DNA from: a virus
Taxonomy: Duplodnaviria; Heunggongvirae; Uroviricota; Caudoviricetes
IMG/VR virus record: IMGVR_UViG_2778261639_000017
Strand: one strand, 5' to 3'
DNA: 4,524 bases
Made by a program: the position numbers and the translations under genes. Positions 1 through 4,524 of this stretch are shown here, one piece after another. The notes under the pieces were generated by a model. That model was not told where the DNA came from, searched no databases, and saw nothing but the letters and a program-made list of their open reading frames with translations. How positions within the stretch are numbered: position 1 is the first letter of the stretch; every line of letters starts with the position of its first letter.

Positions 1-110
1 AGGCGCTCGCACTAATGACGCCCGTGGAATATATTTTAAAAGAGAATAAAAATTGCAATATGTGGTGGACCCATACATTCTGTTGTTTATGCCAAAGATA
101 AAGGCTACCA

Positions 111-311
111 TCAGGCAGCCTTGTTGTTCTGTTTGTCAAGTTCTCTGGCAATTATTGCCGTCGTTCGTATTGCCCATTTATCGACATATTTCCTATCTTC
201 CATTACAGGAAACATTTCTTCAGGCTTAACCATGCATTCCGATTGCAGCTTGCATCCATTACATCGCTTGAATTGTCCACGCCATTGATTTTTATCAATA
301 GTCGTAGTCAT
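111..311 (-). CDS. ral: Ral-like restriction-alleviation protein (66 aa)
   Basis: ORF of 66 codons with an ATG start at 309-311 (minus strand) and an AGGA Shine-Dalgarno about 8 nt upstream. Size, a Cys-containing RCNGCK...C motif, and position distal to N and sieB in the leftward early operon fit lambda Ral. The sequence also resembles lambda Ral as I recall it (recall not verified). Confidence 0.6.
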   Translation of the reverse strand: MTTTIDKNQWRGQFKRCNGCKLQSECMVKPEEMFPVMEDRKYVDKWAIRTTAIIARELDKQNNKAA

Positions 312-381
312 ACGGATAGTCCTGGTATTGTTCCATCACATCCTGAGGATGCTCTTCGAACTCTTCAAATTCTTCTTCCAT
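295..381 (-). CDS. Small highly acidic ORF (28 aa, MEEEFEEFEEHPQDVMEQYQDYPYDYDY) overlapping the ral start by 17 nt
   Basis: Hand translation of the minus strand gives ATG at 379-381 and a TGA stop at 295-297. This size and overlap match what I recall of the small orf28 annotated beside ral in lambda. It is below the 60-aa cutoff of the supplied ORF track. Its coding status is uncertain. Confidence 0.3.
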   Translation of the reverse strand: MEEEFEEFEEHPQDVMEQYQDYPYDYDY

Positions 382-460
382 ATATCACCTTAAATAGTGG
401 ATTGCGGTAGTAAAGATTGTGCCTGTCTTTTAACCACATCAGGCTCGGTGGTTCTCATGT

Positions 461-504
461 ACCCCTACAGCGAGAAATCGGATAAACTCTATTCACCCCT
501 ACAG
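461..504. repeat. Direct repeat ACCCCTACAG(C/A)GAG, two copies (461-474 and 495-508), directly upstream of the sieB-like start
   Basis: Seen directly: the 10-mer ACCCCTACAG occurs at 461-470 and 495-504, and the next four bases also match except at one position. Confidence 0.5.
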
Positions 505-524
505 AGAGCAAAAGAGAAACGCCG

Positions 525-1106
525 ATGAACAACTCATGGTGGCAGGAACTAATGCATTTTTTCCTGCAAGGAATGACACTTAAACAGTTGATTCATATGC
601 TAATCATCCTGATCATATTGATTATTGTTATGCCGGTAAGCGTAAAAGAATGGATAAACCTGCATAATCCAGAAATCCTTCCTCATTACTGGATGTATTA
701 CATCCTGTTGTTTTGCGTTAGCTATGTGCTTAACGGCGTTGTTAATTCCGCTTATCACGCTGTGACTGAAAGAATTGAGGTATCCGCTGCTCAGAAGCGC
801 AAATCTAAAGAAGAAAAATATGTGCAAGATTTGTTTGATTCATTAACTCTTGGAGAAAGAGCGTATTTGGCATTCGCTGTAGCCGCTAATAACCAGCTAC
901 AAACGGAAAAGGGAGCTCATGAATCAATTTCATTGCTCAAAAAAGGACTCCTCGTTCGAAGGCCTCCTGCTGTTGGATATCCTGATACCGACCGTTTCGT
1001 TATCCCTGAAAGCTATAGACATGAGTGCTACATTAGGTTTGCCGGGAAGGCAGACAGCCTTATGGATGAACTTATCGCTCAGGATAAGCATGGCAAAAAC
1101 AAGTAA
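525..1106 (+). CDS. sieB: SieB-like superinfection-exclusion protein, predicted inner-membrane protein (193 aa; alternative start ATG 552 giving 184 aa)
   Basis: Long + strand ORF ending in TAA at 1104-1106. The N-terminal part has two strongly hydrophobic stretches (LIHMLIILIILIIVMPV and YWMYYILLFCVSYVLNGVV) typical of SieB. It lies between ral and N and converges on N, as sieB does in lambda. ATG 552 has the better Shine-Dalgarno (CAGGAA, 4-nt spacer). Confidence 0.6.
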   Translation: MNNSWWQELMHFFLQGMTLKQLIHMLIILIILIIVMPVSVKEWINLHNPEILPHYWMYYILLFCVSYVLNGVVNSAYHAVTERIEVSAAQKRKSKEEKYVQDLFDSLTLGERAYLAFAVAANNQLQTEKGAHESISLLKKGLLVRRPPAVGYPDTDRFVIPESYRHECYIRFAGKADSLMDELIAQDKHGKNK

Positions 1107-1122
1107 TTAGCAAATGAATTTA

Positions 1123-1395
1123 TCATCTCGCCGTCAGTTGTTTTGATTTCCGGTAGCCTGCCGCGTAAAGAGCTACGTTCGGAAGACAAGTTGAACCTTC
1201 ATATTTTCTGGTCAACGTTGTCAGAGTTATCACTTCTGCTCTCATTGCTGGTTTGCGCTTGCATTGCAAGACCACTCGTGAAGGGGTTGGCCTGTGTAGC
1301 TTGTCGGAGCTGATCGCCTCCTGACTTTGCAGATTTGCGCGACGAGCTCTACGGCGAGAAGCTGCGGTGCCTTTAAATTCTGTTTTTCTGGACAT
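1123..1395 (-). CDS. N: Antitermination protein N (90 aa) with an arginine-rich motif and a P22 gene-24-like C-terminus
   Basis: ATG at 1393-1395 is preceded by a strong Shine-Dalgarno (GGGAGGAA, 5-nt spacer). The N-terminal region carries an arginine-rich motif (GTAASRRRARRANLQ). The C-terminal residues ...LPNVALYAAGYRKSKQLTAR closely resemble the P22 N-like protein as I recall it. The 24-codon upstream extension in the ORF track (to 1467) is rejected because it lacks a ribosome-binding site. Confidence 0.75.
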   Translation of the reverse strand: MSRKTEFKGTAASRRRARRANLQSQEAISSDKLHRPTPSRVVLQCKRKPAMRAEVITLTTLTRKYEGSTCLPNVALYAAGYRKSKQLTAR

Positions 1396-1493
1396 GGATT
1401 CCTCCCGAATAAACTTTGGCGATGCAATCTCGAAGCTCCTCCTGAGACGGTTGCTTCGGCATTGCATCCCACAGCTTATGTGGTTGGGTGATC

Positions 1494-1539
1494 TGGCTTT
1501 TCAGCCACGTAGTCGAGAGTCGACGTTGTTTAAAGAGCC
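1494..1539 (-). promoter_or_regulatory. nutL: nutL: boxA (GGCTCTTTAAACAAC on the minus strand, + 1525-1539), spacer hairpin (GTCGA-CTC-TCGAC, + 1512-1524), boxB-like hairpin (TGGCT-GAAA-AGCCA, + 1494-1507)
   Basis: The boxA core GCTCTTTAA matches the lambdoid and rrn boxA consensus. The element lies between the predicted pL and the N start. Its architecture is mirrored at nutR on the + strand with compensatory changes in the boxB stem. Confidence 0.6.
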
Positions 1540-1584
1540 TGCCAGTCTGTTCCATTTGGCTTCCAGCGTCCTGCTGACGGTTAA

Positions 1585-1613
1585 ATAGTACGATATGTAC
1601 TTTACAAGATCAA
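1585..1613 (-). promoter_or_regulatory. Candidate pL with an embedded operator: -35 TTGATC (+ 1608-1613), -10 TACTAT (+ 1585-1590), 17-bp spacer containing the 12-mer TAAAGTACATAT (+ 1593-1604)
   Basis: The same 12-mer sits at the same place in the spacer of the predicted PR (3 nt after the -35, 2 nt before the -10). The hexamers are moderate matches to the sigma70 consensus. An alternative -35 (TTGTAT) is possible. Confidence 0.4.
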
Positions 1614-1797
1614 TACAATTTGTTGTAGGTTGGCGTGGTTTTTTATAACGCTTTGTATTTAATAGTGTTGTTTTTTAGCGTGGATGTATTGTCTCGGCGA
1701 TGTAAGGAGAGATCAGAATTGCGTGGTTTAGTGGGTTGCATCTATTTATTTTTCAATAAATATAATTGGTTATGTGTTTTTAGGTGGGCGAACGTGA

Positions 1798-1828
1798 GGC
1801 AAAGAAAACCCGGCGCTGAGGCCGGGTT
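1798..1828 (-). terminator. Intrinsic terminator of the cI-cassette operon: 8-bp GC-rich stem (AACCCGGC / GCCGGGTT), 6-nt loop, then TTTTCTTT on the minus strand
   Basis: Seen directly. The hairpin at 1807-1828 begins 3 nt after the stop of the 250-aa gene (stop at 1832-1834) and is followed on the minus strand by a T-rich tract (+ 1798-1806). Confidence 0.65.
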
Positions 1829-1831
1829 GTA

Positions 1832-2584
1832 TTATGCTGCAAGTCTCTTAATCCAAGTCTCTCTTTTGGAGAATGGTAGAACTTGGCTTGATTCATGGAA
1901 GAGTAAGGAGAGTTGTTGCATTTGATCACCAATTGCTTCGCTGTCTATAACAACAAATCTGTTGTTATACTCCTCACTTGAAGCTTTAAGATCAATTAGT
2001 TTCCCAAGCAATGAGTAAGCACTATTCCAGCTTCCTCCGTGTTTCACGCTTGATGTAAAAACGTATTTAGGTATGTCGGTTTTTATTGTTACAGGGACGG
2101 TAATTTGATGTCCACTCAAGCCATATACGTTTTCACGAAGAGAAAGTGCGTCTCTAAGCTCTGTGTGATATAGATAATCAATAACCATACTTTCAAACTT
2201 TTCAGCTTGAACTGGCTGATACCAGTCTAACGACAAAGTTGATGCGAGTATACCAGCTCTAATTATGTTCGATGTAATCGCACCGACATCCTTTTCTGTT
2301 GCCCAAGCAATGATTTCTCCTCGAGCATTGAGTTCTGCGCCTTCTTTAAGCAGTAATTGTCGTATCTCATCAAGTCGTTTTTTGGTAAGCGAGATCCCTC
2401 TTGCCTCCATATTCATTAAGGCATCGCATCTGTCACTAACTAAATACCTACCATTGACTTCACGGATAAAGGCACCGACATGCTCTCCATCATCACAGTA
2501 AGTGAATGGACTGATAATTCTCAAGGTCTTGCCTATTGGATGGCATTCGAAACCTAGTTGTGAGATCACTGTTGAGCACATCAT
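1832..2584 (-). CDS. Hypothetical protein, 250 aa, distal gene of the two-gene cassette in the rexAB-equivalent slot; function unknown
   Basis: Long minus-strand ORF. Its ATG (2584..2582) overlaps the TGA stop of the upstream gene in an ATGA arrangement, indicating translational coupling. No transmembrane-like segment, P-loop or other motif I can recognise. Not RexB-like (RexB is a small multi-pass membrane protein). Confidence 0.8.
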   Translation of the reverse strand: MMCSTVISQLGFECHPIGKTLRIISPFTYCDDGEHVGAFIREVNGRYLVSDRCDALMNMEARGISLTKKRLDEIRQLLLKEGAELNARGEIIAWATEKDVGAITSNIIRAGILASTLSLDWYQPVQAEKFESMVIDYLYHTELRDALSLRENVYGLSGHQITVPVTIKTDIPKYVFTSSVKHGGSWNSAYSLLGKLIDLKASSEEYNNRFVVIDSEAIGDQMQQLSLLFHESSQVLPFSKRETWIKRLAA

Positions 2585-3138
2585 ATTCCAAACCCCATTT
2601 GCCCCGACTCATCTTCAAGCGGTAAAGGTACTCTCCCAGAGTAAGTTATGTTCAGATGTTTACAGAAGTAATTCCAATACCCTACCAGGTCATCTGGGTT
2701 TATGTCATCTTCGATTGGAAACGCTATTCTATCACTATAGTATCCAGCTTCTTCATAGTATACATGGTAGTGAGCACCGTAAATGATATCTTGGTACTTC
2801 GGATGATCGACCTTGTAACTATTCGTGTGTTTGTCAAAGTGATAGGTATCTACCGCGAAAACCCTCTTGTTATGATAGAAAGCAATAATATTTATTTTAG
2901 GGTAAGAAATCGGGTCATCAGGTTCTGAATCCTGATCTGGTTTCCATTTCAGTTCAAACTTTAGCCCTTGTATAGGTATACAATCCTCATCCAAGGGGAT
3001 GATATGAGCTTGTAGCCACATATCAGAGCGACTTGGTTTCTGTTTCCATTTAACGCCAGAAAAGTTAACTATTTTTTTACAATAAAGTACTTTATCAACT
3101 TCTACTTGGCTTGGCTGATAATCATCTATTTTTGCCAA
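2581..3138 (-). CDS. Hypothetical protein, 185 aa, proximal gene of the two-gene cassette immediately downstream of cI; function unknown
   Basis: Minus-strand ORF bounded by an in-frame TAA two codons upstream. The only start consistent with full length is TTG at 3138..3136, with AGGGCGG about 6 nt upstream; the next in-frame ATG is at codon 40. The product is acidic and aromatic-rich (many D, E, Y, H) with no hydrophobic segments. It starts 39 bp after the cI stop. Confidence 0.7.
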   Translation of the reverse strand: MAKIDDYQPSQVEVDKVLYCKKIVNFSGVKWKQKPSRSDMWLQAHIIPLDEDCIPIQGLKFELKWKPDQDSEPDDPISYPKINIIAFYHNKRVFAVDTYHFDKHTNSYKVDHPKYQDIIYGAHYHVYYEEAGYYSDRIAFPIEDDINPDDLVGYWNYFCKHLNITYSGRVPLPLEDESGQMGFGI

Positions 3139-3177
3139 TGTTTACCGCCCTGTAAATTGTAGATAAAAGTGGTTTCA

Positions 3178-3831
3178 TCACCCAAACGTCTCTTCAGGCC
3201 ATTGGCTGGCGATAACTTTCCCCACAACGGAACAACTCTCATTGCATGGGATCATTGGGTATTGTGGGTTTAGTGGCTGTAGAAACACCTGACCGCTATC
3301 CCTGATCAGTTTCTTGAAGGTAAATTCATCACCACCAAGTCTGGCTATGCAGAAATCGCCGGGCTCAACAGCTTGCTCAGGGTCAACCAGAATTAACATC
3401 CCGTCAGGAAAGCTGGGTTTGGAACCTGTTGGTGCGGTCATTGAGTTACCTTCAACCTCAAGCCAGAATGCAGAGTCACTGGCTTTTTTGGTTGTGCTTA
3501 CCAATCTCTCCGCATCGCCTTTGGTAAAGGTTCTGAGTTCTGGAGAGAACATCCCAGCCTGAACATGAGAAAAAACAGGGTACTCATATTGTTTTTTAAC
3601 TGGGGCCGATGAGTATTCGCCAACAGGTGAAAATGTCCCGTCGTGGTTGAATGATATGTTATCAATACCAAGGTATTTAAACACCACACCAATATCACTA
3701 AGAGATGGATGACGAGATCCGCGCAACCAGTGTCCAATCCCACCCTGCGTCATACCTAGCTCTTCGGCTAACTTCTCTTGAGTTATGCCGAGCTCTTTCA
3801 TTCTGGATCTAGCCAGTTCATACCATTTCAT
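3178..3831 (-). CDS. cI: CI-type prophage repressor: XRE-family HTH N-terminal domain plus lambda-CI-type S24/LexA-like autocleavage C-terminal domain
   Basis: The C-terminal ~135 residues ([16 protein letters not shown]...SQWPEETFG) match lambda CI as I recall it at all but one position, including the Ala-Gly cleavage site (VQAGMF), the catalytic Ser (GNSMTAP) and Lys (FKKLIRD). The N-terminal domain ([38 protein letters not shown]...) is an unrelated HTH. Start chosen at ATG 3829-3831, which has AAGGA 7 nt upstream. Alternative starts are ATG 3835-3837 and ATG 3871-3873 (which would be leaderless-like, as in lambda PRM); TTG at 3879 is the track's limit. Confidence 0.9.
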
Positions 3832-3873
3832 TTTCATGTCCTTATTATTACGCTTTGTACTGGAACCATCCAT

Positions 3874-3946
3874 GCACAATGTGTATTTTTACTTGTATTC
3901 TTAAAGTACATATTGTATTTTTATTCGTGTTTACTATGGAGGGCAT
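3874..3946. promoter_or_regulatory. Divergent cI/cro control region (OR with PRM and PR). Candidate PR: -35 TTGTAT 3893-3898, -10 TATTTT 3916-3921, operator 12-mer TAAAGTACATAT 3902-3913 in the spacer. cro Shine-Dalgarno GGAGGG at 3938-3943
   Basis: Seen directly: an AT-rich intergenic region between the divergent repressor and cro genes, with recurring TGTA/TACA inverted motifs (for example the 17-mer TGTATTCTTAAAGTACA at 3894-3910, half-sites matching 6 of 8). The 12-mer is shared with the pL region in the same promoter-relative position. Confidence 0.6.
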
Positions 3947-4162
3947 ATGAGCAACCTACGAAAATATCGAGAGTCACTGAATATCTCTCAAACAACACTT
4001 GCTAAGGCAGTTGGATGCACACAGGGAGCTATCGGACATTGGGAATCTGGTCGTCGCTTCCCAGACCTTAAAACATGCCGTGCTCTTGTTGCATGCCTAA
4101 ACAAGTTAGGCGCAAAAGTCAGTCTTGATGACGTGTTCCCGCCGGAACATAAAGCCGCTTAA
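3947..4162 (+). CDS. cro: Cro-like HTH regulator (71 aa)
   Basis: ATG at 3947 is preceded by a strong Shine-Dalgarno (GGAGGG). The product has an XRE-type helix-turn-helix (ISQTTLAKAVGCTQGAIGHWESG). It is divergent from cI across the operator region. Stop TAA at 4160-4162. Confidence 0.85.
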   Translation: MSNLRKYRESLNISQTTLAKAVGCTQGAIGHWESGRRFPDLKTCRALVACLNKLGAKVSLDDVFPPEHKAA

Positions 4163-4172
4163 TAAGCGGATC

Positions 4173-4218
4173 CGCTCTTTGTAACAACGGACATTCGTCC
4201 TACGTCGCTGAAAAGCGA
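4173..4218 (+). promoter_or_regulatory. nutR: nutR: boxA (CGCTCTTTGTAACAAC, 4173-4188), spacer hairpin (GGAC-ATTC-GTCC, 4189-4200), boxB-like hairpin (TCGCT-GAAA-AGCGA, 4205-4218)
   Basis: Position-for-position parallel to nutL on the opposite strand (boxA, small hairpin, TACGT, then a 5-bp stem with GAAA loop). The boxB stems differ by base-pair-preserving changes (GGCU/AGCC versus CGCU/AGCG). Located just downstream of cro, as in lambdoid phages. Confidence 0.6.
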
Positions 4219-4303
4219 GTTCCAAGATATCTGACCAACTAAGGCCATATGCGTTTCCACGCATACCTTTCAACTAACTATTCACTATTGGAAATCTTAA
4301 GAA

Positions 4304-4450
4304 ATGGAAAGAACAAGTTACAGCAAACTATCACAGCGTGACGTTGATCGCGCAGAAACAGATTTACTTATCAATCTGTCAGCTATTACCCAGCGCGGTC
4401 TGGCAAAGATGATTGGCTGTCATGAATCGAAGATAAGCAGAACGGACTGA
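4304..4450 (+). CDS. cII: CII-like HTH activator, apparently truncated (48 aa) by an in-frame TGA
   Basis: Hand translation gives MERTSYSKLSQRDVDRAETDLLINLSAITQRGLAKMIGCHESKISRTD then stop. The HTH segment aligns with lambda CII (...LLNKIAMLGTEKTAEAVGVDKSQISRWKRDW...) as I recall it. Lambda CII is 97 aa. The frame stays open beyond the TGA to the window edge. Confidence 0.4.
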   Translation: MERTSYSKLSQRDVDRAETDLLINLSAITQRGLAKMIGCHESKISRTD

Positions 4451-4524
4451 ACCGCCCCGGGTTTCCTGGAGAGTGTTTTATCTGTGAACTCAGGCTGCCA
4501 GATCATCGTTTCCGATGGAAGCAT

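Follow-up and report, generated by a model that had tools for sequence, protein, structure and literature searches.

An IS629/IS1203 terminus as the probable origin of the premature cII stop in a lambdoid prophage of Escherichia coli

The window, i.e., the whole stretch of DNA that was analysed (4,524 bases), covers a lambdoid prophage immunity region. The gene names used here are confirmed by related prophages (E. coli F2_81, PE164 and others), with which it shares 99.9% identity between 77 and 4449 (the annotation of the F2_81 prophage, L004, was followed). The prophage fragment (78-4447, 4.37 kb) is bracketed by two IS ends and carries ral (111-311, minus strand), sieB (525-1106, plus strand), N (about 1123-1395, minus strand), two cargo genes (1832-3138, minus strand), cI, cro and the beginning of cII. 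The cI-like gene (3178-3879, minus strand) is intact and encodes a LexA-family repressor with an HTH_3 domain and a Peptidase_S24 domain covered from 1 to 116 out of 116 positions (Pfam, E=1e-28); in relatives it is annotated as a 231-aa LexA family protein. The cro-like gene (3947-4162, plus strand) is an intact HTH repressor gene of 71 aa (Pfam HTH_3, E=4e-12), annotated in relatives as a helix-turn-helix regulator.

The two cargo genes, located between N and cI, overlap (1832-2584 and 2581-3138, both on the minus strand). They encode 250 aa (a DUF1828 protein) and 185 aa, respectively. The pair matches the PADLOC candidate defence system PDC-M24 (M24B over its full length, E=6e-10; M24A partially, E=5e-4) and is found at the place of rexAB in lambda. 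Another module replaces it in two contigs considered below (L007 and L014).

On the left, the window starts within an IS481-family insertion sequence, of which it contains the 3' end (1-77, plus strand); these bases match, at 100%, transposase loci of this family that are multi-copy in 1,070 E. coli genomes. Comparison with L006 and with the F2_81 prophage places the exact boundary between 76 and 80, and prophage homology starts at 77-78, just beyond ral. In relatives the region beyond ral contains DUF2528, cIII, kil, gam and recT; the window has the IS481-family end instead. The right end of the window is also occupied by an IS end, and both IS stubs are 77 nt long, as expected of a de Bruijn contig (k=77) that terminates in repeat nodes. 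It can be inferred that the assembly broke at repeats and that the window is one complete short-read contig, so that what lies across either IS copy is out of view.

The cII fragment is located downstream of the cro-like gene, as in phage ev017 and in lambda, the O side being beyond the IS and the window. The ORF (4304-4450, plus strand) begins with ATG at 4304 and ends with TGA at 4448-4450, leading to a 48-aa product, MERTSYSKLSQRDVDRAETDLLINLSAITQRGLAKMIGCHESKISRTD. This product matches Pfam PF05269 (Phage_CII) with E=8.5e-14 and 52 bits, for a gathering score of 21.3. The ORF list, the Pfam match and the identity with ev017 all define 4304-4447 as the 5' part of a lambdoid cII, i.e., codons 1-48, encoding the N-terminal helix and the helix-turn-helix. 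A complete CII domain occupies about 91 profile positions in a protein of about 91-99 aa; the window product covers positions 1-45 out of 91, versus 1-91 for the intact 98-aa CII of ev017. It is thus a CII homologue that ends early, as had been proposed, and on sequence grounds the window cII is a gene fragment and presumably not a functional member of the family.

Codons 1-48 are 100% identical to those of the intact 98-aa cII of ev017, which reads ACG GAC TGG AGA TTT at this site. The codon affected is that of a conserved Trp, in agreement with the original prediction: Trp49 is invariant in the CII homologues aligned (121/121), BLASTP places it opposite Trp47 of lambda CII, and at least 120 IMG/VR viral contigs sharing the upstream 27-mer have TGG at this codon. 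A non-wild-type base at any of the three TGG positions was searched for in IMG/VR contigs with the same upstream 27-mer, with 0 matches. The same search (0 matches, against at least 120 for TGG) gave no alternative sequence diverging at GGAC/GGACT by which the contigs ending there could be explained. Complete cII ORFs with this 27-mer in viral contigs encode 98-99 aa in 114 cases out of 115. No CII homologue ends near residue 48 and, among 120 homologues, none ends before reference position 81; a functional short CII ending at the same place, by which the original prediction could have been contradicted, is thus not seen among them.

A candidate CII-binding box, TTGC-N6-TTGT (putative -35 region of pRE), is present on the minus strand at 4313-4326, in the first codons of cII. 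This single pattern match is by itself at chance level, since at least one match is obtained in 90 of 200 shuffles. Its location presumably corresponds to that of lambda pRE.

After the TGA the frame is open for 24 codons, up to the window edge, as expected from the original prediction and confirmed by translation. That prediction had also described a residual similarity of these codons to CII (TAPGF... versus WIPKF...) and had explained the stop by a nonsense change of TGG to TGA. Neither of these two claims is retained. The 24-aa translation gives no BLASTP alignment with intact CII even at E<=100 and no Pfam match, i.e., by this search the downstream in-frame sequence lacks similarity to CII C-termini. 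At the DNA level, the window matches intact cII alleles at 100% as far as base 4449, where the identity is abruptly lost; cII stops at 4447-4449 and another sequence starts at 4448. Positions 4448-4524 have exact (100%) counterparts in 4,068 of the 5,426 complete E. coli genomes, at loci that bear the annotation «IS3-like element IS1203 family transposase»; in these genomes this 77-nt tail is found on chromosomes and plasmids (median of 3 copies per genome, maximum of 50).

The sequence that begins at 4448 corresponds to the last 77 nt of IS629/IS1203, of the IS3 family, cut by the window edge and carried on the minus strand (transposase antisense to cII). Two features are recognized in it: (i) a 25-nt terminal inverted repeat, TGAACCGCCCCGGGTTTCCTGGAGA (4448-4472), i.e., the arm beside the 3' end of the transposase gene, whose first three bases are the in-frame TGA; (ii) the 3' end of the transposase (OrfB) gene (4490-4524, minus strand; coding part 4493-4524, stop 4490-4492), ending in ...ASIGNDDLAA. 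The inverted repeat is identical to the arm at 3330-3354 of a complete copy in E. coli strain 28RC1 (L002), and the minus-strand residues ASIGNDDLAA, followed by the stop, are the C-terminus of the transposase annotated as IS1203 in that copy. The 28RC1 copy is 1,310 bp long and has 25-nt inverted repeats (TGAACCGCCCCGGGTTTCCTGGAGA and TCTCCAGGATTTCCGGGGCGGTTCA, 88% complementary) flanked by a 3-bp direct repeat, ATC. The full element, with its 1,310 bp and an annotated programmed frameshift, is seen in 28RC1 and in strain 90-3040 (L003), where it also lies in cII, while the window holds 77 nt of it. In a DNA alignment of the three IS junctions, all align from TGAACC onward. By analogy with 28RC1 (ATC), 90-3040 (CAC) and the published IS629 duplications, the three bases before the IS (GAC, 4445-4447) are the predicted target-site duplication.

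The ends of IS3-family elements start with TG. The TG at 4448-4449 can be assigned to the IS end or to the target TGG, thus the breakpoint is ambiguous by 2 nt at the sequence level. Because the displaced codon, TGG, also starts with TG, the junction mimics a single-base nonsense change. In view of the identities described above, the stop codon of the window cII is the terminus of IS629/IS1203 and not a point mutation.

The mechanism proposed is thus that a copy of IS629/IS1203 (1,310 bp) is joined to cII at the boundary of codons 48 and 49, the transposase gene being antisense to cII. The probability of this explanation is estimated at roughly 0.93. The terminus TGAACC supplies an immediate in-frame TGA exactly at the target TGG (Trp49). 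A hybrid outward promoter was also looked for at the junction, and the consensus scan revealed no promoter-like site; the idea of an IS-end promoter driving leftward, pRE-like transcription toward cI was dropped on this basis.

With 77 nt of the IS, the window stops short of the far junction, of any duplication and of the 3' half of cII. For a simple insertion, the far side is predicted to consist of the left end of the IS (...GGGGCGGTTCA), GAC and then TGG AGA TTT, i.e., codon 49 onward; the corresponding junction would read ...TCTCCAGGA(A/T)TTCCGGGGCGGTTCA-GAC-TGGAGATTTATTGC... Neither the GTDB representative genomes nor the JGI metagenomes contain this predicted junction (IS left end, GAC, TGGAGATTT...). 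The exact near junction is itself absent from the 5,426 complete E. coli genomes, the GTDB representative genomes, the JGI metagenomes, IMG/VR and the phage collection. Its second instance (L007) was obtained via exact-protein look-up only.

This look-up finds the exact 48-aa product on at least 24 contigs, and it is also present under E. coli accessions at NCBI. Ten contigs with this product are listed: one with the IS junction (L007), one with a nonsense mutation (L013) and eight that stop at the junction base. L007 (Logan SRR34274867) has a cII-IS629 junction identical to that of the window and is an independent assembly made with a different assembler. Between 3178 and 4447 (~1.27 kb), 13 sites distinguish it from the window (about 1% divergence in the aligned region), and its N-to-cI module does not align with that of the window. 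L013 (1409-1705; ENA ERZ27255958, metagenome contig k141_233045) contains a genuine W49*, TGG to TGA by a G>A change at nt 147, in a cII otherwise identical to that of ev017 and followed by the O and P genes. Read from the sequence, L013 is a case where the same 48-aa product as that of the IS-disrupted allele is reached by an independent route.

The eight other contigs (L008, L009, L010, L011, L012, L014, L015 and L016) have right ends at ...ACGGAC, ...ACGGACT or ...ACGGACC; they come from several assemblers and represent at least two cI-cro-cII haplotypes. In their last 1,270 nt, L014 and L007 have the same sequence; between L009 and L007 there is a 1-nt difference. Since L007 bears the IS, at least some of these eight ends are probably assembly breaks at the same IS. 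However, Logan contigs keep 24-28 nt of IS at comparable ends, against 0-1 nt in the eight contigs, and this is not fully explained.

Other features of these and related sequences were observed. The first 50 nt (1-50) of L011, a public contig (ENA ERZ652405 NODE_460), are probably an Illumina Nextera i5 adapter, i.e., contamination. In L012 (Logan SRR8494136_600), about 28 nt (1-28) resembling an IS911-like IS3-family end are joined just upstream of sieB (window-equivalent position ~501). In E. coli F2_81, the closest complete-genome relative, cII is damaged in another way (L004:7228-7562): it encodes an 87-aa CII, its 3' end overlaps a partial ninE and the whole looks like a deletion of O, P and the ren-nin region. 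The 87-aa CII of F2_81 (P0101) is recorded on 59 contigs.

Among the alternatives, the first is a sub-variant of the IS explanation, with the same junction after codon 48 and a different far side: an IS-mediated deletion or rearrangement, in which the 3' half of cII, possibly O/P and more, would not be found across the IS. It is a rather unlikely outcome but one to be taken seriously. The prophage fragment is flanked by IS ends at both sides, IS629 is described as a cause of gene inactivation and genomic deletions (PMC9943667), and the predicted far junction is found in no collection scanned. This last point is nevertheless uninformative, since the scanned collections hold neither junction of the window insertion; moreover, the two IS629/IS1203 insertions that are fully visible in this cII family, those of 28RC1 and 90-3040, are simple ones with 3-bp duplications.

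The second alternative is an assembly artefact, the 77-nt IS tail being a de Bruijn graph overlap or a chimera and cII being really intact, reading GACTGGAGATTT. Multi-copy IS sequence of 77 nt at both window ends is indeed the signature of a k=77 short-read contig. Yet a graph edge into a repeat node still needs reads that span the boundary between unique and IS sequence, the boundary is placed exactly at the terminal TG of the IS, as in real insertions, and L007 has the same junction from a different assembler. This explanation is thus very improbable.

A point mutation of TGG to TGA at Trp49, in an otherwise continuous cII, has in its favor that all relatives examined have an intact TGG, from which a single G>A gives TGA, and that this exact mutation is present in another sample (L013, nt 147, with O and P next). 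A nonsense pseudogene however needs collinearity past the stop. The window has none at the DNA or protein level: from 4450 onward it is unrelated to cII, the whole 3' half being missing (DNA alignment and BLASTP at E<=100), and the 100% identity of 4448-4524 to the IS629/IS1203 end includes the inverted repeat and the transposase stop. Such a mutation can practically be set aside as the cause of the stop. It is equally hard to believe in a naturally short, functional 48-aa CII, although at least 24 contigs, as well as NCBI accessions, contain this sequence: among the ten contigs listed, the 48-aa records correspond to partial ORFs at contig ends, to an IS junction or to a nonsense mutant, the Pfam domain is covered by half, and the homologues (none of 120 ending before reference position 81) and viral-contig ORFs (98-99 aa in 114/115) are longer.

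Joining of IS629/IS1203 to cII thus remains the preferred reading, and its recurrence can be considered. Codon 48/49 (...ACGGAC|TG...) could be a recurrent IS629 target, or cII could be preferentially inactivated in resident E. coli prophages; either proposition is doubtful at present. In support of it, the window and L007 share the junction although 13 sites separate their cI-cro-cII haplotypes, eight more contigs from several assemblers stop at exactly the junction base, two other cII sites are occupied by this IS with its orientation unchanged, and a W49* point mutant has arisen independently with an identical 48-aa product. Against it, ascertainment plays a part, since a look-up with the exact 48-aa sequence can return codon 49 events only, and recombination could have spread a single ancestral insertion. 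Recurrence, if true, would suggest either a target preference of IS629 or that selection favors prophages with preserved immunity and cargo genes but without the ability to re-establish lysogeny.

CII is a tetrameric activator needed for the establishment of lysogeny, and cII mutants give clear plaques (PMC3053222); according to work cited in that paper, the C-terminal part of CII is involved in oligomerisation and contains a proteolysis signal. The truncated product keeps the N-terminal helix and the helix-turn-helix and is devoid of residues 49-98. The missing half would carry, as in lambda, the oligomerisation region and the C-terminal signal for degradation by FtsH. Since CII is tetrameric and its oligomerisation half is missing, the truncated product should be inactive; by this analogy, the 48-aa fragment is presumably non-functional, and no activation of pRE, pI or paQ is expected from it. 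With the cI-like repressor gene and the cro-like gene intact, immunity and maintenance of the prophage should persist. The loss of establishment with conservation of maintenance, as originally predicted, is therefore a reasonable deduction from the truncated cII and the intact cI and cro, although the mechanism invoked, a nonsense mutation, has to be replaced. Any phage released would be cII-minus, i.e., of the clear-plaque type. The IS also separates, by 1.3 kb, pR-cro from the replication genes, if these are present, and by analogy with lambda could be polar on O/P and could lower the competence for induction.

On the opposite side of the immunity region, the IS481-family element truncates the prophage beyond ral, i.e., the cIII side is interrupted or deleted by an IS. 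The prophage, which retains the repressor, cro, N, sieB, ral and the candidate defence gene pair and has no working cII, looks like a prophage in decay. Of the two possibilities raised in the original prediction, decay or selection after integration, the first agrees with the presence of two IS; for positive selection or adaptation there is no indication in the data examined. The relevance of the result is limited to the prediction of inducibility or of lysogenic conversion potential for this particular prophage. It also calls for caution in annotation: an apparent nonsense stop at the edge of a contig or window can come from the TG(A) at the tip of an IS3-family element, in which case the frame that seems open past this stop is transposon DNA.

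A known relative of the protein is lambda CII (PDB 1XWR, 1ZPQ, 8IGR; PF05269). The intact allele of the gene encodes a protein 43% identical to it over 88 residues, with an identical C-terminal KKRPAATERSEQIQMEF; the window encodes residues 1-48, and the half that aligns with lambda residues 47-97 is missing. With regard to phenotype, the window allele can be compared by analogy with the nonsense, clear-plaque cII mutants of lambda: the same phenotype would be expected, i.e., no efficient establishment of lysogeny and unaffected maintenance by cI. The cause differs, being a base substitution in the lambda mutants and a transposon insertion in the window.

The closest known case is the IS1203-split cII of E. 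coli 28RC1 (NZ_CP015020.1; ARC77_RS05730 / ARC77_RS05715), both halves of which are labelled as pseudogenes by RefSeq. In 28RC1 and NE122, IS629/IS1203 is inserted within codon 43 of cII with a duplication of ATC (L002:3330-4639). The 28RC1 insertion has the same 25-nt inverted repeat, transposase C-terminus, target gene family and orientation as that of the window, and cII is truncated in both; the window insertion is located 19 nt downstream, after codon 48 instead of within codon 43. In 90-3040 and three other strains, the IS is found at codon 88/89 with a duplication of CAC (L003:3468-4778). At all cII sites the orientation of the IS is constant, with the transposase antisense to cII. The insertions at codon 43 and at codon 88/89 append twelve IS-encoded residues (EPPRVSWRVFYL) before the stop, thus the CII of 28RC1 and 90-3040 gain the tail EPPRVSWRVFYL, whereas the IS TGA is in frame with cII in the window only and the window CII has no IS-encoded tail.

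In O157:H7, IS629 is the most abundant IS and is behind many gene inactivations and deletions (PMC9943667). In the same serotype, 62% of IS629 copies are found in prophages or prophage-like elements, the prophage sites being highly variable and the duplications 3-4 bp long (PMC3271280), and IS629 is a main driver of the diversity of Stx2a phages (PMC4587872). The literature search found no paper describing IS629 in cII specifically. Nevertheless, in view of the 28RC1 and 90-3040 insertions, IS629 in cII is an already known kind of event, here at a site absent among complete genomes, and the window would represent one more case of IS629/IS1203 eroding lambdoid prophages in E. coli.
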